Assembly: GCA_028282935.1 (NCBI GenBank)
Contig: JANQGU010000114.1
Span: forward strand, 1 to 58,576
Direction: 5' to 3'
DNA length: 58,576 nt
From: Kiloniellales bacterium
GTDB taxonomy: Bacteria; Pseudomonadota; Alphaproteobacteria; Kiloniellales; JAKSBE01
In this document: positions 8,652 through 16,161 of the stretch, piece after piece
Layout of the letters: the number at the start of each line of letters is the position of its first letter
How positions within the stretch are numbered: position 1 is the stretch's first letter
The notes under the pieces: model-generated
Told to the model about the DNA's origin: nothing
What the model saw: only the letters and a program-made list of their open reading frames with translations
Databases searched by the model: none
Translations under genes and position numbers: made by a program

Positions 8652-9668
8652 TCACTTCCAGTTCTCCTCCACCCAGCCGCAAACCTCCCGCCAGGCCTCC
8701 GTCTTCATGTATTCGCTCGTCCGCTCTTCGAGTTCGGCGACGTGCTCGTAGTCGTCGAGCGGGTAGGGTGCGTCGAGCGACACGTTGCCCCGGCAGAATG
8801 CCTCGCCCAGCAGCTTCTCGGCCTCGGCGGTGGCGCTGGTGGCCGTCGCGTCGAACATCAGGCTGACCAGCGCCATGCTCGGCACGTGCTCGCCCCACTT
8901 GCTCGGCCAAAGCCAGTTCTTCGCGCCCCAGCTCAGCGGCTTGTACTTCTGGAAGAGGGCGGGCGGGACGCCCTGGGGGTCATGTCCGGTGCCCAGAGAC
9001 AGGACGCGGATGTCCGAAAGGCCGTCGGCGAGCCCGCCGCCGATCACCTCGCTGACCGCGGTCATGGTTGGGTTGTTGGCGAAGAGGCCGCCGTCGACGA
9101 AGTACCCCAGCTCGTCCGATACCTCGTGCGGTGGAAAGTAGGTCGGGGCCGCGGAGGTCGCGAGCGCCGCGTCGACCATGCTCACGTTTCGGAAGCGGTT
9201 GTCGGGGAGGCTGGAGAGGGTGCAGGATCGCCAGGACAGCGTGTAGCCGTCCCATAGCTGGGCGGCGTTCACGATGACGATCTTATCGGAGTCCCGGAGC
9301 CGGTCGTCTCCGAGAAGCTCCTCGGCCAGCTTCTTCAGGCCGTCGGCCTTGTACTGGCAGGACCAGATGCCCGGGCCGGCCAGCAGCTCTTCCTCTTCCT
9401 CGCTGGGCTCGACTTGATCCGCTGTCTCCGCGAACACGCCGTTCGGCGTGAAGATCTCCGCTCCCTTCGTCTTGTAGATTTCCACGATCTCGTCGATCGG
9501 CTTCTCTCGGGCGAGACCCAGGGCGATCAGCCCACCGGTGGAGGTGCCGGCGAAGCCCTTCGCCTTGCCGATGAAGCCCGGGAAGGTGTCGTGCAGGTTC
9601 TGGATCAGAAGGGCGGTGATCAGGCCGCGGATCCCGCCGCCGTCGCAGCACAAGATGTTATGGGTCAT
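8652..9668 (-). CDS. Patatin-like phospholipase
   Basis: DGGGIRG oxyanion loop, GTSTG nucleophile, ATSAAPTYF and DGG catalytic Asp; GGAG SD. Confidence 0.93.
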   Translation of the reverse strand: MTHNILCCDGGGIRGLITALLIQNLHDTFPGFIGKAKGFAGTSTGGLIALGLAREKPIDEIVEIYKTKGAEIFTPNGVFAETADQVEPSEEEEELLAGPGIWSCQYKADGLKKLAEELLGDDRLRDSDKIVIVNAAQLWDGYTLSWRSCTLSSLPDNRFRNVSMVDAALATSAAPTYFPPHEVSDELGYFVDGGLFANNPTMTAVSEVIGGGLADGLSDIRVLSLGTGHDPQGVPPALFQKYKPLSWGAKNWLWPSKWGEHVPSMALVSLMFDATATSATAEAEKLLGEAFCRGNVSLDAPYPLDDYEHVAELEERTSEYMKTEAWREVCGWVEENWK

Positions 9669-9737
9669 TTCTTTCTCCTCTGGAGCCTGATCGCTTCACA
9701 CCGGCTGGGCATGAAGGATGAGCCAGCCTCCTGTTCG

Positions 9738-9848
9738 TCAGGACAGGTCAGATTTCACGGCGCAGGCCGGCTCGACCTGCGCCGATCTTGATCCAGGCCA
9801 GCCGCGGTGGATCGGGCGCCGCGGCCGGCCAACCTCGATGTGTCGCAT
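9738..9848 (-). CDS. Possible small precursor-like peptide MRHIEVGRPRRPIHRGWPGSRSAQVEPACAVKSDLS (36 aa)
   Basis: Translated by hand. Contains RRPIHR and QVEPA, resembling neighbouring precursors, but the SD is poorly spaced. Confidence 0.3.
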   Translation of the reverse strand: MRHIEVGRPRRPIHRGWPGSRSAQVEPACAVKSDLS

Positions 9849-9886
9849 TCCTGGTTCGGTTCGTTCGCCCACCGGGACCGGCAAAC

Positions 9887-10141
9887 TCAGAGTCCCCAAA
9901 GCCGCCGCTGGCCGGAGTAGGGCTGAGAGAAGGTTTCCCGAGCGACCGGGTCCGCCAAGACCCTGACCGCTATGTTGGGCTTCACGTAGCGGGGCGGAGC
10001 GCCGAAGGCGAAGGGCTTGGGGTCGACGCCCGTCCCCTGCGGCGGCCTGCGCACGGGTTCGGCGCCCGATGGCGTTGCGTCCGAGGGCCTCGGCGGGGAG
10101 CCGGGCTGCGGGCCGTTCGTGTTTCCTGGTTGCTCTGGCAT
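9887..10141 (-). CDS. Small protein (84 aa), possibly PatC-like accessory
   Basis: Co-oriented in the protease locus. The C-terminus GQRRLWGL recalls the RRGRIWA end of PatC/TenC/TruC proteins. Confidence 0.5.
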   Translation of the reverse strand: MPEQPGNTNGPQPGSPPRPSDATPSGAEPVRRPPQGTGVDPKPFAFGAPPRYVKPNIAVRVLADPVARETFSQPYSGQRRLWGL

Positions 10142-10194
10142 GGTCCTGGGCCTTTCTTCTGAATGGCGGTTGTCAATGGCTCGCTTGCTGCGGG

Positions 10195-10386
10195 CTAGCC
10201 CGTCGAGCCTTCGGCGCGGCGCAGCAGCGCCTGCCGCACGATCGGGTTGCGCTCCGCGATCTCGCTCATAATCCGGTCGAAGCCGACCGGATTGCTGAGG
10301 AAGGGTTTGTTTCCGGCGGCGCTGGGCTCGACGCTGCCCGTGGCGGCCGCGTTCGGGCCGGCTCGGGGCGTGCCTGTAAGTTGCAT
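10195..10386 (-). CDS. Small peptide (63 aa) with GSVEPS motif
   Basis: AAGGAG SD before ATG at 10386; MQLTGTPRAGPNAAATGSVEPSAAGNKPFLSNPVGFDRIMSEIAERNPIVRQALLRRAEGSTG. Confidence 0.7.
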   Translation of the reverse strand: MQLTGTPRAGPNAAATGSVEPSAAGNKPFLSNPVGFDRIMSEIAERNPIVRQALLRRAEGSTG

Positions 10387-10466
10387 GACGACTCTCCTTG
10401 TGGTCCTCGCTTGGCGGCGGGCGCGGCGTCCGGAGGGGGCCGAACGCCGCTCCCTCACACCGGGTT

Positions 10467-10625
10467 TCAGCCGCTCAAGGCACCTTTCACGGCGCCGATG
10501 AGCGCAGGCACGGCGATGCCGGCCAGGGCGCCCAGGAACGCCGGCTGGACACTGCCGACGACGCCGACCTGAGCCGTTCTGGCAGGTCCACGTTCGACAC
10601 CTTGGCATTGGATCGGCTTACGCAT
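10467..10625 (-). CDS. Putative RiPP precursor peptide 2 (52 aa)
   Basis: AGGAGG SD; MRKPIQCQGVERGPARTAQVGVVGSVQPA-FLGALAGIAVPALIGAVKGALSG; paralog of 10712-10867. Confidence 0.85.
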   Translation of the reverse strand: MRKPIQCQGVERGPARTAQVGVVGSVQPAFLGALAGIAVPALIGAVKGALSG

Positions 10626-10711
10626 TGCAGACCTCCTGGTAGCTTGAGAGAAGGGCGGGCGGAGCGACCCGGAGCAGCGGAGGCTCCGCCCTTGCACTCA
10701 GCGAGAGAGGG

Positions 10712-10867
10712 TCAGCCGAGCGCACCCTGCAGAGCGCCGAGAGCGGCGTTCTTGAGGACCGGCATAATGCTGCCGAGGAACGCCGGGTTGGCACCGCCGG
10801 CTACGGCGATCTGCGCCGTCTTGGCCGGGCCGCGCTCGACGCCTTCGCACTGGATTGGCTTACGCAT
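10712..10867 (-). CDS. Putative RiPP precursor peptide 1 (51 aa; not in ORF track)
   Basis: AAGGAG SD; hand translation MRKPIQCEGVERGPAKTAQIAVAGGANPA-FLGSIMPVLKNAALGALQGALG, ending in TGA at 10712-10714. Confidence 0.85.
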   Translation of the reverse strand: MRKPIQCEGVERGPAKTAQIAVAGGANPAFLGSIMPVLKNAALGALQGALG

Positions 10868-10993
10868 TGCGAGTCTCCTTGCGGTTGGAGAGGGAAGGAT
10901 GGGCGGAACCGTCCCGATCTGCGGAAAGCCCGCCCGCTCAAGGCCGGCACCGGGGTGCCGGCTCCCCGCGGCTGCCGCCGCGTGGGTTCTGTC

Positions 10994-13399
10994 CTAGAAG
11001 ATCGACCAGTTGCGCAGCGGTCCGACGGTCACCGGGACCACGTCGCTGACGTCGACGGTGTACTGGAAGACGTGGCGCGCCGTGGTCAGCGTCTCCGTCG
11101 GATTGAAGAAGGTCCAGGTCGCGTCCCAGCAATCCGAATCGGGCCGGCAGATCGTGCTCCGGTCCACCGAGACGGTGTCCAGGAACATCCCGCTGTGGGC
11201 CATTTCCTCGAAGATCTTCTTGGTGTTGTAGGCGTTGAACGCCGAGTAGTTCATCGCCCGGTCCTGCGGCGAGACGCCGACGTTGCGGAACTGGTTGTAG
11301 ATCCTCTCCAGGAATTCCTTGAAGTTGTCCGGCGGATCCTCGCCGGCGATGTCGGTGATGTTCCAACCGAACATGCCCCGCCAGACCGGCAGCAGTTGCG
11401 GGACCACGGTCCCGTTCATCAGCCGGACTTCGCCGTCGACGTAACCGGCCTGGGACACGCGCTCGACCGGCGGCTTCTTCTTGTCCTTCTTGGACTTGTC
11501 CTTCGGGTCCGGGGCAATCTGGCGGACATCGTCGATGCCGCTGATCGGCTCGCTGCACTCCTGCTGCCACAGCAGGGTCGCCAGCTCCATGTACATCGGC
11601 AGGCCGAAGGAACTATGGGGCTTGATCGCATAGATCGGGGCCGTGTCGATGTTGACCGTCCAGATCAGCGCGTTGGAGTCGGGGAAGTTGATCAGCACCT
11701 TGGTCTTTGGGTCCTTGTACAGGAGGTACTTGATCATGATTTGCGGGTTCCACGGCGCGGCGTAGTCTCCGCTTGAATCGTAGTGATCGGGATCGACCCG
11801 TTTCCGCCACTCCGCGATCGCCTGCACGAAGTAGTCGAAGCGGGCCTCGCTCTCGAAGTCGTAGAACAGCCGTCCGATCACGAAGACCGAGGACTCGCCG
11901 ATCGCCTGCGAGGGCTGGATGCCGGCGCAGCCGCAGGACTGGTTCGGCGCGACCGCCGCCGGCATTGCCGGGCCCGGCATGCCGCTGGGCCAGCCCTCCG
12001 CCGCCTGCGGCGCCACGGGCTGAAGGACGGGTGCCTGGGGTGCCGTCGCCGGCAGGGCGAGGCCCTGGGGCATCACGGGCGGCGGGCCCTGCACCTGGGG
12101 CGCCGTCTGCGCCGGCACCATGGCGGTGGCCGGGGCGGGCAGGGCCGCGGTCGTGGCGGGCGCCGGGGCCTCGGCGGGGGATGCTGTGCCCGACGCGGGC
12201 GCGCTCGTCGCTTCTGCGGCGCCGGCGTCGGAGGGGGCGACCGGGGGGTGACCCGGGTCCGAGGGCAGGGCGGTCGAGGAGCCGACCCCGGACAGCGGAG
12301 CGCCGTCAGGGCCGAGGATCGACGCCGGAGCGTGACCAGGTGTCTGGTAATTCGCGGACATGGCGTTTGCCTCTCCTGTGAGCTGGTTGTGGGACAGGGA
12401 CGATTCGGACAGAGCGCCGCCTGCCGCGCTCGGCAGGGGCGACGTCGACGGCGTCGCAGTTGCGACGACACGCGGCGTTGGGTTTTCCCGTGGTTGCGAC
12501 GCGCCGCTCGGAGCGGTTCGCTGGAGCGCCGCCATCGCCGCCTCCACGTCGAGGACGCCGACGGGGCCGAGGTCCGGCGCGAACCGCGGATCGAGCGGCG
12601 CCGCCGTGTCGAGCAGCAGTCGGCGGATCGCAGGGGCGTCGGACTCGTCGCCGAGCTGGCGGCTCAGGCTGAGGAGCAGCGCGGCGACCGCGGTGACGAT
12701 GGGAGTCGCGAAGCTGGTGCCCGACCGCGGGCTGACGCTGCCACCGGGGCCGGCACCGGGAATGGCGTCGCCCGGCGCCAGGATGCCGTTTTCACGGTAG
12801 GCGTCGCCGTAGTTGCTGAACGCCATGGGCTTGCCGTCCCGGTCGCAGGCCCCGACGGCCAGGACGCTCGGCAGCGCGGCCGGCACATGGAGGCAACGGC
12901 AGCCGTCGTTTCCCGCCGCCGCGACGAGCAACGCGTCGCGCTGAACGCATTCTTGGACGGCCGCCTCCAGGAAGCGGTCGCCCTGTCCGGTCGGCGTGAA
13001 CTGGCCGCCGCTGATGTTGATGAGCGTCGCGCCGCTGTCGAGCGCGTGGTGAATGGCCCGCGCCAAGGTCGTCTGCGCGCAGCTCACCAGGTTCCCCTCG
13101 GAGTCTTCCCGGTAGACCGGGATGCAGAGGAGCGTGCAACGGGGCGCGATCCCGGCGACCGGCGACCCCGGCTGACCGGCAATGACGCTGGCGACATGGG
13201 TGCCGTGCGTCGAGCGGGTGAGATCGTACTGGCTCGGCTGGACGATCAGCGGCGCGCGGTCGCCGGGGGAGGTCCCGAGGAACGCGGGGTGGTTCGCATC
13301 CACGGGGCCGTCGATGACCGCGATCCGGATATCCGGCGAGCCGCCGGCGGTTTGCTCCATGAGCGCGCTCAGGCCCGGAATGTCGGTGACGGGAGTCAT
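10994..13399 (-). CDS. PatA/PatG-family (cyanobactin maturation-type) S8 subtilisin-like protease with C-terminal PatG-type DUF
   Basis: Triad motifs IAVIDGPVD, HGTHVAS and SGTSFATP; AAAGNDGCRCLHVPAA; Pro/Ala linker; C-terminal IGRLFYDF, WTVNIDTAPIYAIKP, RNVGVSPQDRAMNYSA, CRPDSDCWD and YTVDVSDVVPVTVG. Confidence 0.92.
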   Translation of the reverse strand: MTPVTDIPGLSALMEQTAGGSPDIRIAVIDGPVDANHPAFLGTSPGDRAPLIVQPSQYDLTRSTHGTHVASVIAGQPGSPVAGIAPRCTLLCIPVYREDSEGNLVSCAQTTLARAIHHALDSGATLINISGGQFTPTGQGDRFLEAAVQECVQRDALLVAAAGNDGCRCLHVPAALPSVLAVGACDRDGKPMAFSNYGDAYRENGILAPGDAIPGAGPGGSVSPRSGTSFATPIVTAVAALLLSLSRQLGDESDAPAIRRLLLDTAAPLDPRFAPDLGPVGVLDVEAAMAALQRTAPSGASQPRENPTPRVVATATPSTSPLPSAAGGALSESSLSHNQLTGEANAMSANYQTPGHAPASILGPDGAPLSGVGSSTALPSDPGHPPVAPSDAGAAEATSAPASGTASPAEAPAPATTAALPAPATAMVPAQTAPQVQGPPPVMPQGLALPATAPQAPVLQPVAPQAAEGWPSGMPGPAMPAAVAPNQSCGCAGIQPSQAIGESSVFVIGRLFYDFESEARFDYFVQAIAEWRKRVDPDHYDSSGDYAAPWNPQIMIKYLLYKDPKTKVLINFPDSNALIWTVNIDTAPIYAIKPHSSFGLPMYMELATLLWQQECSEPISGIDDVRQIAPDPKDKSKKDKKKPPVERVSQAGYVDGEVRLMNGTVVPQLLPVWRGMFGWNITDIAGEDPPDNFKEFLERIYNQFRNVGVSPQDRAMNYSAFNAYNTKKIFEEMAHSGMFLDTVSVDRSTICRPDSDCWDATWTFFNPTETLTTARHVFQYTVDVSDVVPVTVGPLRNWSIF

Positions 13400-13819: not shown

Positions 13820-14176
13820 TCAGTCCGGCGCAATCGCCTCGATGGCACGATTGAAATGAAATACGAAACCCGACGGCAAAGACCTGGTAAGGCTTAAAAG
13901 CGTTCTTTCTTCGTGGTTCACCGTGAGTGAAATATGCTGATCCATATTGCCTCTGGCCAGAAGCAGCCAATCGGCCGAAATGTCGAGGGCTCTGCAGAGC
14001 TTGATCACGTTTTCGGTGGCGATCGGCGCGCCTCTTCTCCAGCGACTGATCGCGCTTTCGTTGACGCCGATTTCAATCGCGAGAGCGTACATTTTCTTGA
14101 TCTTGCGGATGCGGAGGGCCTCCTCCAGCCGTTGGCCCCGACCTGCATCCTGTTCGCTCGGTGAGGTTCCCCCCAT
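13820..14176 (-). CDS. XRE-family HTH transcriptional regulator
   Basis: LAIEIGVNESAISRWRRG...KLCRALDISADWLL; lies in an AT-richer segment. Confidence 0.85.
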   Translation of the reverse strand: MGGTSPSEQDAGRGQRLEEALRIRKIKKMYALAIEIGVNESAISRWRRGAPIATENVIKLCRALDISADWLLLARGNMDQHISLTVNHEERTLLSLTRSLPSGFVFHFNRAIEAIAPD

Positions 14177-14720
14177 GCTACCGCCTCTCACCAAACCGCT
14201 GCGACGTCCGCCCGAACTCCCGACAAGAAAAGACGTTCCCCAAGGCCCGCCGCCGCGGCTCCGGGTGCCTGGCCGGCCGCGTCCGTTTCTGCCGCCCGGA
14301 CGCGGCTTTTGCCGACAAGGCTCCTTCCGACGCCGCCATTCGGTCTCACGTTTCTATTATCCAAGTCGTAGTAGCAAAGACCTAAAGAAGAGCACGTTAT
14401 AGATATGAATTGCAATCTGAGGATGTATCTACCATTAACATTGTGAGAGGTTTTTCTTCTATAGATTGTAGTTCGACAGGCCTTTGTTGGGGGTCTTGCC
14501 TTCTTGGCCGGCCCCTTCGCGGCGAGAGGCACGCTCAAGGTGCGGAGCCGGATGCTAGCGCGGGCTCTGTTCTTAGCCGGAGGGACGGCGTCTTCCTCGA
14601 TCCTCGCGGCAAACCCGATTGGCGGCGAGCGACCTCGAAAGGGCGAGGGCCATCGCACAGCGCGCCAAAATCGGTTACCTCTTATGTATCGACCGAACGC
14701 GCGCCAAGGAACCGAGCCCG

Positions 14721-15155
14721 ATGCCCAGTGCCTGCATGAGACTCTTTGCCCTCGTTCTTGCGACCCCGATTCTCCTTTGCGGCGCAGGGACCCCTGTCCG
14801 CGCCGACAGCCACGCCGACGACTTGCTCGGCGCCGAGGACCTCACGCCGGAGGCCATCTTTGCGCTGATGGACAAGGACGGCAGCGGGACCGTGACCAGC
14901 GACGAGCTGCGCACCTACAAGATGGGGATCTTCTTCAAGCTCGATCGCGACCGCGACGGCTCGCTGTCGCGCGGCGAGCTCCCGGGCTTGAGCGACGCGG
15001 AGTTTCAGGCGATGGACCGGGACGGCGACGGCCAGGTCTCGGGTTTCGAGTTCAACCAGTCCAGGGTGACCGCGATCGAGGCGATGGACCTGGACGGCGA
15101 CGGCGTCGTCACCCTGGAGGAGTTCAAGAGCTATCGCAGCGAAGCGGCAAAGTGA
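14721..15155 (+). CDS. Secreted EF-hand protein
   Basis: Signal-like N-terminus; four DxDxDG-type loops (DKDGSG, DRDRDG, DRDGDG, DLDGDG). Confidence 0.85.
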   Translation: MPSACMRLFALVLATPILLCGAGTPVRADSHADDLLGAEDLTPEAIFALMDKDGSGTVTSDELRTYKMGIFFKLDRDRDGSLSRGELPGLSDAEFQAMDRDGDGQVSGFEFNQSRVTAIEAMDLDGDGVVTLEEFKSYRSEAAK

Positions 15156-15198: not shown

Positions 15199-16161
15199 AT
15201 GAGTCGCTATCAACGCTCCTCGGTTGAGCTGCCGAAACCGGATCGTCAGTGGCTCCAGGCCCCGGTCCTGACCGGGGTTGCCATCGCCTTGATCGCGCTG
15301 GCCAGCGGGGGCACCGAGTTCGTCTTCGGGCTGCTGATGCTGGCGGTCATACTCGGCGGTGTCGGGACCTTCTACCTGCTGTTTCCAGGCAGCCGTTTCT
15401 TCTCCATCTCGCTGGCCAACTTCCTGGCCGTCTACGCCTGCATCTACGTCTTCGTGCTCGAGACCAACTTCGTCGAGGCGTCCAAGCTTGCCGGCAGGAC
15501 CGGTTTCGTCCTGCCGATCTTCGCCTTCATCGCGGGCGCCCTGCTGCGCCGACGCCTGATCCGGGACATCATCGCGGCACAGCCTAGCCTGGCCGCCGAC
15601 GACGTAGCGAAGGGCCTGCTGTGGCTGCTGCCGCTCGCCGTCATCGGCCTGTTCAGCTTCGCCGTTCCGATGCTCGCCTGGGGCGGCGAGGAGGAGAGCC
15701 TGGGACTCCTGATCTCAATGGGCGCGGTCGCGCTGATCGTCTTCCTGCTCAGCCCCAGGGTCAGCGTCTTCTTGCTCCTCGCCGGGCTGATGTTCGAGCG
15801 CTTCTTCGACCGCGTCGTCGGACTCGTGGTGCCGGCCTTTGCCTTCCTGACCTTCTACTCCATGCTGGTGATCCTCTTCGCCTGCGTCTACCGCATCGTC
15901 GACCTCTACGTTCCGGGGGCGCACTTCAACTTCAACGGCACGCCCTATCAGATCGACTTCTCGGACGGCCTGTACTTCTCGATCGTCACCCTGTCGACCC
16001 TCGGCTACGGGGACATCGCACCGGCGAGCGACCTGGTCCGGGCCCTGACGGCGATCGAGATCGTCGGCGGCGTGCTGCTCCTGCTCTTCGGCTTCTCCGA
16101 GATCATGCGCTACGCGCATGACCGGGAAGGCCCGGCCGGCGACCGTCCGGCGGAGGATTAG
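15199..16161 (+). CDS. Potassium channel family protein
   Basis: Multiple TM helices; pore motif YFSIVTLSTLGYGDIAP. Confidence 0.88.
   Translation: MSRYQRSSVELPKPDRQWLQAPVLTGVAIALIALASGGTEFVFGLLMLAVILGGVGTFYLLFPGSRFFSISLANFLAVYACIYVFVLETNFVEASKLAGRTGFVLPIFAFIAGALLRRRLIRDIIAAQPSLAADDVAKGLLWLLPLAVIGLFSFAVPMLAWGGEEESLGLLISMGAVALIVFLLSPRVSVFLLLAGLMFERFFDRVVGLVVPAFAFLTFYSMLVILFACVYRIVDLYVPGAHFNFNGTPYQIDFSDGLYFSIVTLSTLGYGDIAPASDLVRALTAIEIVGGVLLLLFGFSEIMRYAHDREGPAGDRPAED

Follow-up and report, generated by a model that had tools for sequence, protein, structure and literature searches.

A probable leader-cutting site in two precursor peptides encoded beside a PatA-type protease of a Kiloniellales bacterium

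Gene content of the locus

The window (the whole 58,576-nucleotide stretch of Kiloniellales DNA analysed here, contig JANQGU010000114.1) carries on its minus strand a gene for a PatA-type protease, followed by genes for two leader-plus-core precursors and by two small conserved ORFs, orf63 and orf84 (Table 1). The protease scores 502.1 bits against TIGR03895 (cut-off 421.05); this cut-off is passed only once in the genome (81% complete), and thus no second protease of this type was found. It comprises an S8 domain (approximately residues 1-300; Pfam Peptidase_S8 at 24-267), a Pro/Ala-rich disordered linker (301-500), for most of which the AF2 model has pLDDT below 50, and a C-terminal DUF (504-801) formed by PatG_D (505-614) and PatG_C (691-798). 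All 117 aligned family members have D30, H65, N164 and S229, and the nearest solved structures are PagA (4h6w, 276 bits) and PatA (4h6v, 247 bits), with PatG (4aks) at 151 bits; on its sequence the protein is a PatA-type enzyme. Upstream of it, also in one of two related loci (L003), lies an XRE-type helix-turn-helix protein, a possible regulator.

No macrocyclase or other cyanobactin enzyme was found in the locus: a G-type macrocyclase and a C-terminal recognition sequence after the precursor cores are missing, as are a heterocyclase, oxidase or prenyltransferase near the protease gene. The cluster holds no exporter; the nearest efflux pump, about 2.8 kb upstream of the protease gene, is of the RND type and may be unrelated to it.

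Table 1. Features of the locus in window coordinates
Feature	Coordinates	Strand	Remarks
Patatin-like phospholipase	8652..9668	-	338 aa; Pfam Patatin 1.1e-24
DQVEPS	9402-9419	-	patatin residues 84-89
36-aa ORF	9738..9848	-	AQVEPA; not conserved
orf84	9887..10141	-	no known family; ATPS at residues 22-25
orf63	10195..10386	-	no known family; GSVEPS at residues 17-22
Stem-loop	10419-10454	-	GC-rich; inverted repeat I1; directly 3' of precursor 2
Precursor 2	10467..10625	-	52 aa; GSVQPA at residues 24-29; 23-residue core
Stem-loop	10651-10693	-	GC-rich; inverted repeats I4/I8; directly 3' of precursor 1
Precursor 1	10712..10867	-	51 aa; leader 1-29, with GGANPA at residues 24-29; 22-residue core from FLG
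PatA-type S8 protease	10994..13399	-	801 aa
GIQPS	11909..11923	-	protease residues 493-497; candidate self-recognition site
VAPNQSCGC	11927..11953	-	protease residues 483-491
VAPSD	12227..12241	-	protease residues 387-391; linker
IVQPS	13232..13246	-	protease residues 52-56
XRE-type protein	13820..14194	-	Pfam HTH_3 1.2e-07

The precursor family and its leader/core boundary

Each precursor gene is preceded by a Shine-Dalgarno-like sequence (AAGGAGA for precursor 1, AGGAGG for precursor 2), and a profile search of the genome recovers exactly these two copies, the second of which is conserved in both related loci, L003 and L001. The alignment of 29 family members was seeded with precursor 1, so part of the motif's conservation in it stems from the way its members were gathered. 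In all 29, A23, G24 and P28 are invariant; the last leader residue is Ala in 28 and Ser in one, and the core begins with Phe or Ile. The site, conserved in all 29, takes the general form A-G-S-V-(N/Q)-P-A, with Phe as the first core residue. Leader columns are better conserved than core columns (0.92 versus 0.70), and both the indels and the drop in conservation start immediately after the site. Similar to the leader box MRKPIQCEGVERG are the N-termini of small peptides encoded next to PatA-type proteases in unrelated genomes (G499, Gloeocapsa, Nostoc, Acaryochloris and three Streptomyces plasmids). The motif in the two precursors is well supported by this pattern of conservation as a probable cutting site, and is the best-supported part of our interpretation.

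Motif matches against the background

The initial annotation had reported that a V/I/A-x-P-S/A motif recurs across nearly every product of the locus, and its eight strings are indeed present, in place, on the minus strand; orf84, which it did not list, adds one match (ATPS). The motif as written is too loose to mean much. In a stand-in proteome of 3776 long ORFs (1,305,055 aa, filtered by length and GC3, not an annotation) its frequency is 2.56 per 1000 aa and 1931 of the products contain it, and composition-preserving shuffles of locus products place only the Pro/Ala-rich linker above expectation (8 observed, shuffle mean 3.44, reached in 0.017 of shuffles). The other counts are 2 versus 1.57 for the S8 domain, 0 versus 0.52 for the DUF, 2 versus 0.54 for the patatin, and single matches versus 0.31 in orf63, 0.41 in orf84, 0.17 in the 36-aa ORF and 0.27 in precursor 1.

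The sequence after which PatA-like enzymes cut is G(L/V)E(A/P)S (PMC10885120), which bears out the recognition sequences GVEPS and GLEAS cited by the initial annotation; the pentapeptide G[LV]E[AP]S itself has no match in the locus. The precursor-family pattern [VA][NQG]P[AS] matches, among locus products, only the two precursors and IVQPS. Of the ten loose matches in the protease, IVQPS sits between the catalytic Asp and the catalytic His, in a surface loop that differs among family members in both length and sequence. Only the window, L003 and one further relative (P0030) have retained the motif, which falls in two 10-residue blocks (residues 41-60) with mean pLDDT of 59 and 65; the match is probably due to chance. 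VAPSD, in the Pro/Ala/Ser-rich linker, where shuffles alone yield 3.4 matches, is not conserved, being VAPYD in L003 and VTPSD in L001.

The patatin had been read as a further substrate. Its orthologue in L003 (255 of 337 residues identical, 76%) has ADRDELTDEE where the window has DQVEPS, in L001 rlmN takes the patatin position, and no orthologue at E<=1e-40 was found in 60 relatives; we therefore regard the gene as a neighbour that does not belong to the conserved cluster. Against the CBASS lipase model its product reaches 175.6 bits, under the cut-off of 200. The 36-aa ORF, likewise proposed as a substrate, was rejected as a gene, since its region in L003 is intergenic DNA with indels that lacks the part encoding the motif, and L001 has no counterpart. 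Judged by conservation, the motif appears to be a chance match at four places: DQVEPS in the patatin, AQVEPA in the 36-aa ORF, IVQPS in its loop and VAPSD.

A recognition-like element ahead of the C-terminal DUF

GIQPS lies seven residues before the DUF, in a segment predicted by the AF2 model to be disordered and outside the DUF fold. Its counterparts are GVQPS in L003, GVRPS in L001 and GIRPA or AVYPS in the next relatives, and the PatA/PatG family as a whole bears a recognition-like [VI]-x-P-S just before the DUF: [VILAM]xPS occurs within the last 45 linker residues in 102 of 151 family representatives, and the 150 with a long enough linker hold 147 matches, whereas shuffles average 29.1 +/- 5.3 and never exceed 45 in 500 runs. 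VAPNQSCGC, shortly before GIQPS (VAPSQSCGC in L001, IAPSQSCSC in L003), is a degenerate copy of a family element [VI]-x-[PA]-S-x-C-G-C with the consensus VxPSxCGC. A profile anchored solely on the Cys pair recovers the same element (V/I in 60, P/A in 69 and S/A in 72 of 108), and the pair is tied to it in 74 of the 151 representatives.

The precursor of a Gloeothece cyanobactin cluster carries GVTPS, the linkers of the PatA-like and PatG-like proteases there carry SVTPS and YVTPS, and in G499 the precursor reads QSVAPS and the protease linker QSVMPS. Self-recognition by the protease is plausible, given the family-wide [VI]-x-P-S before the DUF and the VTPS common to the Gloeothece precursor and proteases. 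Linker and precursor of the same locus match weakly: cognate pairs agree on average at 3.0 of 7 positions versus 2.58 for non-cognate pairs, a score reached by 851 of 20000 permutations with nine loci and by 469 of 5040 with the seven independent ones. The degeneracy of the window's own element (VAPNQ instead of VAPSQ) counts against a self-site, and the AF2 model, with pLDDT below 50 at the linker site, places it nowhere with confidence, active site included. Thus, of the three places at which the protease was said to process itself, GIQPS alone stands as a candidate, and whether it is recognised by the enzyme, in self- or trans-cleavage or as a pseudo-substrate, seems to us almost evenly balanced with the scales tipped slightly against.

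NisP, the S8 protease that removes the nisin leader, also removes its own C-terminal part (PMC10885120); self-cleavage at the linker site would thus have a precedent. Unlike the window's protease, NisP is secreted, cell-wall anchored and from a different S8 branch; its activity is unimpaired when self-cleavage is blocked (PMC10885120).

Comparison with known systems

The locus shares with canonical cyanobactin systems, in which PatA acts on PatE, a PatA-type S8 protease with a C-terminal DUF and a conserved leader with a short hydrophobic-x-(P/A)-(S/A) sequence directly before the core, the known consensus being G(L/V)E(A/P)S (PMC10885120). It differs in lacking the macrocyclase and modifying enzymes, in its linear, Cys-free cores and in its alphaproteobacterial host, such clusters having been identified until a 2015 review only in cyanobacteria (PMC4663559). 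Also similar are orphan PatA modules on plasmids of Streptomyces (S. virginiae, NBC_00299 and HUAS 31), annotated merely as S8 peptidase and hypothetical proteins: there too a protease with linker and DUF precedes one to four tandem precursors with a similar leader box and short, linear, hydrophobic cores, rich in Phe, Leu and Gly and several beginning F-L, followed by a further small conserved protein. Their precursor site, G-V-E-A-(N/D), is nearer the textbook pentapeptide, their regulator is of the BTAD type whereas that of the window is of the XRE type, and the third of their small proteins has a Cys-containing segment at its end; short of a direct profile comparison, neither orf63 nor orf84 showed homology to that protein. 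In G499, G987 and plasmids of Gloeocapsa, Acaryochloris and Nostoc, orphan proteases of this family likewise adjoin peptide genes with the leader box and a [VI]-x-P-S site before the core, but the cores there are Cys-rich while those of the window have no Cys. Lastly, a genome survey of Acetobacteraceae flagged a lone 'cyanobactin peptidase' in Roseomonas oryzae, as a likely producer of a new cyanobactin-like peptide (PMC8776678); by that description it resembles the window's host as a high-GC alphaproteobacterium with a lone peptidase of this type, though the accessible part of the account gives no precursors, site or product.

Alternative explanations

The broadest alternative, close to the initial annotation, is that a small cascade runs through the locus, the protease cutting both precursors, orf63, the 36-aa ORF and the patatin as well as three sites of its own. 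In its favour the narrower pattern [VI][EQ]P[SA], with 122 matches in the stand-in proteome, occurs six times in locus products, where about 0.13 matches would be expected in sum, and three of the six are in the two large proteins (0.107 expected; Poisson P 0.00019). This pattern was defined after the matches had been seen and is a lead rather than a test, the loose form is at background outside the linker, and the conservation data above remove the patatin, the 36-aa ORF, IVQPS and VAPSD; nothing points to a cascade, and we regard the whole scheme as very improbable. A separate idea is that the protease also cuts orf63 and orf84, as additional substrates or as precursors that have diverged, in which case the operon would yield four processed products. 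The two genes accompany the cluster (orf63 in both related loci), several orf84 relatives sit on contigs as long as those of precursor matches, and each protein has a variable N-terminus, then the motif, then a conserved C-terminal part. The best precursor profile match to orf63 aligns site region with site region (P 0.043), and that to orf84 sets the precursor segment 1-14 against residues 30-43, which resemble the leader box (P 0.013). Against this, the match probabilities are very low (1.2% and 3.4%), composition alone yields 0.3-0.4 loose matches per protein, the site loses its last position in one of three orf63 members (GSVEPS, GAVEPS, EVATPG), and A-x-P-S falls at one column in only 11 of 19 aligned orf84 sequences, the C-terminal half of which is strongly conserved. 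Neither protein matches PatB or PatC models, and orf63 has no Pfam or NCBIfam match at E<=1. Support for these sites is weak; orf63 is possibly a further substrate, the motif in the two proteins is doubtful as a site, and a four-product module is correspondingly unlikely.

A narrower explanation is that only the two precursors are cut, the [VI]-x-P-S-x-C-G-C element being non-proteolytic (capping the DUF through a metal or disulfide, for example, or left over from a fused precursor) and GIQPS incidental. The link to the Cys pair points to metal or disulfide chemistry, locus-specific covariation falls short of significance with the seven independent loci, and the accessible text of the DUF paper reports no ligand and lacks the word 'linker' (PMC4259220). 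However, the element is shaped like the known recognition sequence, even to the alternation of P and A at the last position but one. Both Gloeothece proteases carry it without a Cys pair, as the same VTPS that the precursor has; in the window's clade a second copy after the Cys pair resembles the clade's own precursors; and the segment is predicted to be disordered and apart from the DUF fold. We consider this explanation rather unlikely, if the strongest of those weighed here. The strongly hydrophobic cores (mean 0.49 and 0.65) with low hydrophobic moment would also suit C-terminal transmembrane helices of small, uncut membrane proteins with conserved cytoplasmic heads, the protease acting elsewhere. 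Such proteins would scarcely be expected to adjoin a PatA-type protease in all three related loci, to bear a recognition-like site exactly at the conservation boundary, or to share a leader box that accompanies PatA-type proteases and quite different cores in distant phyla, and we give this idea hardly any weight.

Proposed function

We propose that the locus is likely a minimal orphan cyanobactin-type module made up of a cytoplasmic PatA-type subtilisin with its DUF, two tandem precursors and two small ORFs. The protease would recognise the leader end A-G-(S/G)-(V/A)-(N/Q)-P-A and cut after Ala29, and GIQPS before the DUF might serve it as a self-cleavage site, a trans-cleavage site or a pseudo-substrate. 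The products would be two linear, unmodified, hydrophobic peptides of 22 and 23 residues, rich in Gly, Ala and Leu and each with a net charge of +1.

The PatA-type protease and its gene neighborhood

The protease of the locus scores 502.1 bits against TIGR03895 (PatA/PatG family cyanobactin maturation protease; curated cut-off 421.05), which places it in this family, and its catalytic residues D30, H65 and S229 and oxyanion N164 occupy invariant columns of an alignment of 117 family members, itself included, indicating an intact active site. It combines an S8 domain with a 200-residue Pro/Ala-rich linker and a two-part C-terminal DUF, recovered as PF18047 (PatG_D; residues 505-614, 1.6e-07) and PF18065 (PatG_C; residues 691-798, 7.9e-35) and matched over residues 573-800 by the PatG DUF (PDB 4uvq). 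Among solved structures its protease domain matches PagA (4h6w) at 276 bits, PatA (4h6v) at 247 bits and PatG (4aks) at 151 bits, and the distance between its His and Ser falls into the 160-169 residue bin, which holds 141 of the 153 sequences aligned. These comparisons assign it to the A-type rather than the G-type macrocyclases, nearer to PatA/PagA and with no extra insert. In its genome, which is 81% complete, TIGR03895 rises above the cut-off once, the other two listed matches reaching 72.6 and 43.4 bits. Samples of 401 genomes each gave one genome with an above-cut-off match for the class, two for the phylum and one for the Planctomycetota, and neither of two genomes of the same genus had one. 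In a same-genus genome (G401:C535:12302-13009), the protease-domain part of TIGR03895 is matched in part, at 109 bits, by a stretch with two in-frame TAG stops, which may be a decayed relative.

Every gene of the locus is encoded on the minus strand. The protease, both candidate precursors (prec1 and prec2) and two small ORFs (orf63 and orf84) are conserved together in a syntenic metagenome contig (L003), whose protease is 90% identical, and in a locus from an alphaproteobacterial MAG (L001), whose protease is 65% identical; L001 is without the patatin gene and has rlmN in its place. A promoter scan of the locus returned 0 promoters, and terminator-like sites numbered 3 against 3.5 expected. 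Directly past each precursor stop codon lies a GC-rich inverted repeat with arms of 9-15 nt; these hairpins could stabilise or attenuate the transcript, raising the ratio of precursor to enzyme. Upstream of the cluster and divergent from it are genes for an EF-hand protein, which flanks the L003 locus too, and for an ion channel, and an RND efflux pump begins about 2.8 kb upstream of the protease gene.

Features of the locus and its surroundings (positions in the window)
Feature	Position	Strand	Remarks
Two-TM-type ion channel gene	15199-16161		divergent, upstream of cluster
EF-hand calcium-binding protein gene	14619-15155		divergent, upstream of cluster; signal-like N-terminus; weakly lanmodulin- or XopAW-like
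XRE-type HTH gene	13820-14194	-	
Protease	10994-13399	-	801 aa
prec1	10712-10867	-	51 codons; good ribosome-binding site
Inverted repeat after prec1	10651-10693		
prec2	10467-10625	-	52 codons; good ribosome-binding site
Inverted repeat after prec2	10419-10454		
orf63	10195-10386	-	63 codons
orf84	9887-10141	-	84 codons
Patatin-like phospholipase gene	8652-9668	-	beyond a 218-bp gap after orf84; then an OsmC-like gene

Precursors and predicted peptides

A search of the protein collection recovered 26 relatives of the precursors. In the resulting alignment (n=29) conservation is 0.92 over the first 29 columns vs 0.70 over the rest, and the boundary between the two reads A (29/29), G (29/29), S/G/T, V27/A2, N21/Q6/G2, P (29/29), A28/S1 and then F26/I3, with indels starting directly after this site. 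The alignment divides each sequence into leader, recognition site and core. In form the site matches the known sequence that PatA-like enzymes recognise and cut behind, as described in the available part of PMC10885120, and the proposal that the two precursors are substrates of the protease holds on this conserved architecture. By inspection, they also share the layout of precursors in orphan PatA modules, namely an N-terminal leader box, a [VI]-x-P-(S/A) site, a core and a gene adjoining that of the protease; these form an unnamed group for which there is no curated model to score against, and Pfam and NCBIfam gave no match for prec1 or prec2. At its start the leader carries MRKPIQCEGVERG, an instance of a box common to small peptide genes beside PatA-type proteases of distant phyla. 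A search of the genome itself found the two precursor copies only.

Both precursors have the N-terminal recognition-like site, and their cores run to the stop codon without a C-terminal recognition sequence. We infer that the protease, acting in the cytoplasm, would cut each precursor after Ala29, freeing two peptides that start with FLG and are 22 and 23 residues long (mean hydrophobicity 0.49 and 0.65, respectively; net charge +1 each). Because neither a macrocyclase nor a tailoring enzyme is present, these peptides would be expected to stay linear and unmodified.

The recurrent motif and candidate further substrates

The initial annotation had noticed a V/I/A-x-P-S/A motif in nearly every product of the locus and suggested that it may mark a small proteolytic cascade, in which one protease would process several substrates including itself. 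All the listed strings do exist in the locus products. To gauge the background we used a stand-in proteome of long ORFs filtered on length and GC3 (3776 ORFs, 1.305 million residues), an approximation rather than an annotation, in which [VIA]-x-P-[SA] has a density of 2.56 per 1000 residues and is present in 1931 of the 3776 products; as written, the motif is very permissive. Against composition-preserving shuffles most counts stay near expectation: the S8 domain has 2 matches vs 1.57 expected, the patatin 2 vs 0.54, the small ORFs 1 each vs 0.17-0.41 and the DUF 0 vs 0.52, and the sole part above its shuffles is the protease linker (8 vs 3.44, with 0.017 of shuffles reaching 8). One further loose match, AALPS at protease residues 175-179, sits in the conserved core HVPAALPSVLAVGA, which PagA and PatA have as well. 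The narrower pattern [VI][EQ]P[SA] is rare, with 122 matches across the stand-in proteome, and is met six times in locus products; it is treated as a lead only because it was defined after the matches had been seen. The locus products contain no match to the pentapeptide G[LV]E[AP]S of the literature. The strings are thus mostly not above chance, and since counting the motif does not by itself establish a cascade with several substrates, that central inference is set aside.

Several individual sites are lost in close relatives. The L003 patatin, 76% identical (255/337), reads ADRDELTDEE where the protein of the window has ADQVEPSEEEE, and the part of the spacer encoding the motif of the 36-residue ORF is missing from L003, whose spacer differs by indels; neither product is retained as a substrate. 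Patatin conservation was judged from L003 alone, as a search of 60 relatives, two same-genus genomes among them, gave no orthologue at E<=1e-40. Within the protease, VAPSD is VAPYD in L003, and IVQPS lies in the catalytic Asp-His loop, whose length and sequence differ among family members, and is kept in the nearest relatives only. The patatin-like lipase gene stands alone. Its product does not qualify as the CBASS cGAMP-activated phospholipase (CapV): it scores 175.6 bits against that model, just under the cut-off of 200, and no cyclase was seen among the cluster neighbours scanned (aldo-keto reductase, GNAT, OsmC, patatin, HTH protein, EF-hand protein, ion channel and RND pump).

Their conservation identifies orf63 and orf84 as real genes of no known family: neither is matched in NCBIfam or Pfam at E<=1, and Protein Atlas offered nothing usable for either. 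The site is present in two of the three orf63 family members, the third having EVATPG. In orf84 there is a local conservation peak at A-x-P-S inside an otherwise variable N-terminus, the motif occupying one column in 11 of 19 sequences, with 3 other matches in 664 N-terminal positions. Compared profile to profile with the precursor family, orf63 aligns best at the site region (P 0.043, probability 1.2%) and orf84 at the leader box (P 0.013, probability 3.4%). Motif and profile matches give hints of a link to the precursors, and the two proteins are weak candidates as substrates. A complex prediction of the S8 domain (residues 1-300) with the orf84 alignment scored 0.00 and carries no weight either way.

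A recognition-like site at the linker-DUF junction

Of the sites through which the protease had been proposed to act on itself, one is plausible, namely GIQPS, which lies 7 residues ahead of the first DUF strand and is GVQPS in L003 and GVRPS in L001. We examined the linkers of the 150 best family representatives aligned, all seemingly A-type by His-Ser spacing, the sole G-type linker examined being that of Gloeothece. In 102 of 151 proteins a [VILAM]-x-P-S match falls within the 45 linker residues nearest the DUF, at a rate of 21.6 per 1000 residues vs 2.6 elsewhere in the same proteins; shuffling these segments in the 150 proteins with a long enough linker gave 29.1 +/- 5.3 matches (maximum 45 in 500 shuffles) vs 147 observed. 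A profile anchored on the Cys-x-Cys pair alone (n=108) reads V/I 60, x, P/A 69, S/A 72, x-C-G-C, at a median of 14 residues ahead of the DUF, and the majority consensus of the 117-sequence alignment is VxPSxCGC. The positional excess, the shuffles, the Cys-anchored profile and the consensus therefore show that the family carries an element shaped like an A-type cut sequence at this junction. In the window this ancestral element is degenerate (VAPNQSCGC vs VAPSQSCGC in L001), and GIQPS is a second copy located after the Cys pair, as also found in the next relatives (GIRPA, AVYPS). The AF2 model has pLDDT <50 for protease residues 476-500, so that this segment is predicted to be flexible, exposed and outside the DUF fold.

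A tblastn search of plasmids yielded 11 records, and in these and other loci a protease linker can be set beside the precursors of the same locus.

Sites of precursors and protease linkers in other loci (a hyphen follows the site)
Locus	Precursor	Protease linker
G499 (genome)	QSVAPS-G	QSVMPS-DCGCGG
G987 (genome)	GIVPS-A, GLSPS-GECGCGG	LVMPS-DCGCGG
Gloeocapsa plasmid	GIKPS-E	AVTPS-EC
Acaryochloris plasmid	GVQPS-G	AISPS-ACSC
Three Streptomyces plasmids	SGVEA(N/D)	GV(C/R)PS-C
Gloeothece, canonical cluster	GGVTPS-F	SSVTPS (A-type), SYVTPS (G-type)

A permutation test on pairs of linker and precursor sites favours locus-specific matching only slightly. Cognate pairs are identical at a mean of 3.0 of 7 positions vs 2.58 for non-cognate pairs, a mean reached by 851/20000 permutations with 9 loci and by 469/5040 with the 7 independent loci, so that locus-specific covariation is not significant over the latter; read by eye, the third-last residue of the site is the same in linker and precursor in only 2 of these 7. 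Given this permutation result, we limit the claim to a family-wide recognition-like site rather than covariation.

The enzyme may bind or cleave its own linker site, for which NisP, another leader-removing subtilisin, offers a likeness, as it removes its own C-terminal part (available text of PMC10885120). We tentatively propose, as a possibility to which we give rather low odds, that PatA/PatG-family proteases carry at the end of the linker a built-in copy of the A-protease recognition sequence, followed in many members by a core-like Cys pair, and that the A protease cuts itself and any G protease there, freeing the DUF, or else holds the segment as a pseudo-substrate. Under the same tentative proposal, a second copy, AG-[IV]-[QR]-P-S, resembling the new precursors, would have arisen after the Cys pair in this alphaproteobacterial clade, in which the substrates changed, and the same enzyme might trim orf63 and orf84. 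A literature search found no description of PatA self-cleavage or of a recognition-like site in the PatA/PatG linker; the primary structural and enzymological papers were outside its reach, so this is not proof that such a site is unpublished.

Related modules and the canonical cyanobactin cluster

The Streptomyces plasmid modules resemble that of the window in having short linear hydrophobic cores, and in the literature within reach we found no description of PatA-like modules in Streptomyces or outside cyanobacteria. After their precursors these plasmids encode a protein of about 95-106 residues with a leader-box-like start and a conserved Cys-containing tail (L043:8295-8582, L044:8341-8661 and L045:6149-6448), which may be a third, longer precursor. 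Small Cys-rich peptide genes sharing the leader box lie beside PatA-type proteases at L040:6909-7220, L042:6487-6684 and L038:8950-9189 and 9489-9830; the PLSDB gene table lists no gene for the Cys-rich peptides on the Gloeocapsa and Acaryochloris plasmids. On a Nostoc plasmid, a gene with the annotation S8 peptidase (L046:4462-5838) encodes only 458 residues yet ends in the DUF C-terminus, and resembles a truncated or split member of the PatA/PatG family.

The Gloeothece cluster contains a heterocyclase, a dehydrogenase, A and G proteases, PatB and PatC; its NCBI annotation names PatB and PatC family proteins, implying that models for both exist. Set against the cluster definition in the available text of a 2015 review (PMC4663559), the genome of the window, at its 81% completeness, yielded no second, G-type protease/macrocyclase. 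There is no PatB/PatC-family protein, orf63 and orf84 being unmatched, and no heterocyclase, oxidase or prenyltransferase among the cluster neighbours. Lacking a G protease, PatB/PatC and a C-terminal recognition sequence, the module falls outside that definition; it is the A protease and leader logic of the cyanobactin kind in altered form. A lone 'cyanobactin peptidase' has been remarked upon in Roseomonas oryzae (available text of PMC8776678).

According to the available text of PMC4259220, no ligand turned up when the structure of the DUF was determined. What the linker and DUF do in PatA and PatG has been an open question from then on. A recognition-like site at the linker-DUF junction reduces this question to a simple experiment, namely whether the A protease cuts there. 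The locus itself is a cyanobactin-type module reduced to few parts, in a class that seldom carries the protease family, and its predicted products, plain, linear and hydrophobic, would widen the known uses of PatA-type proteases.
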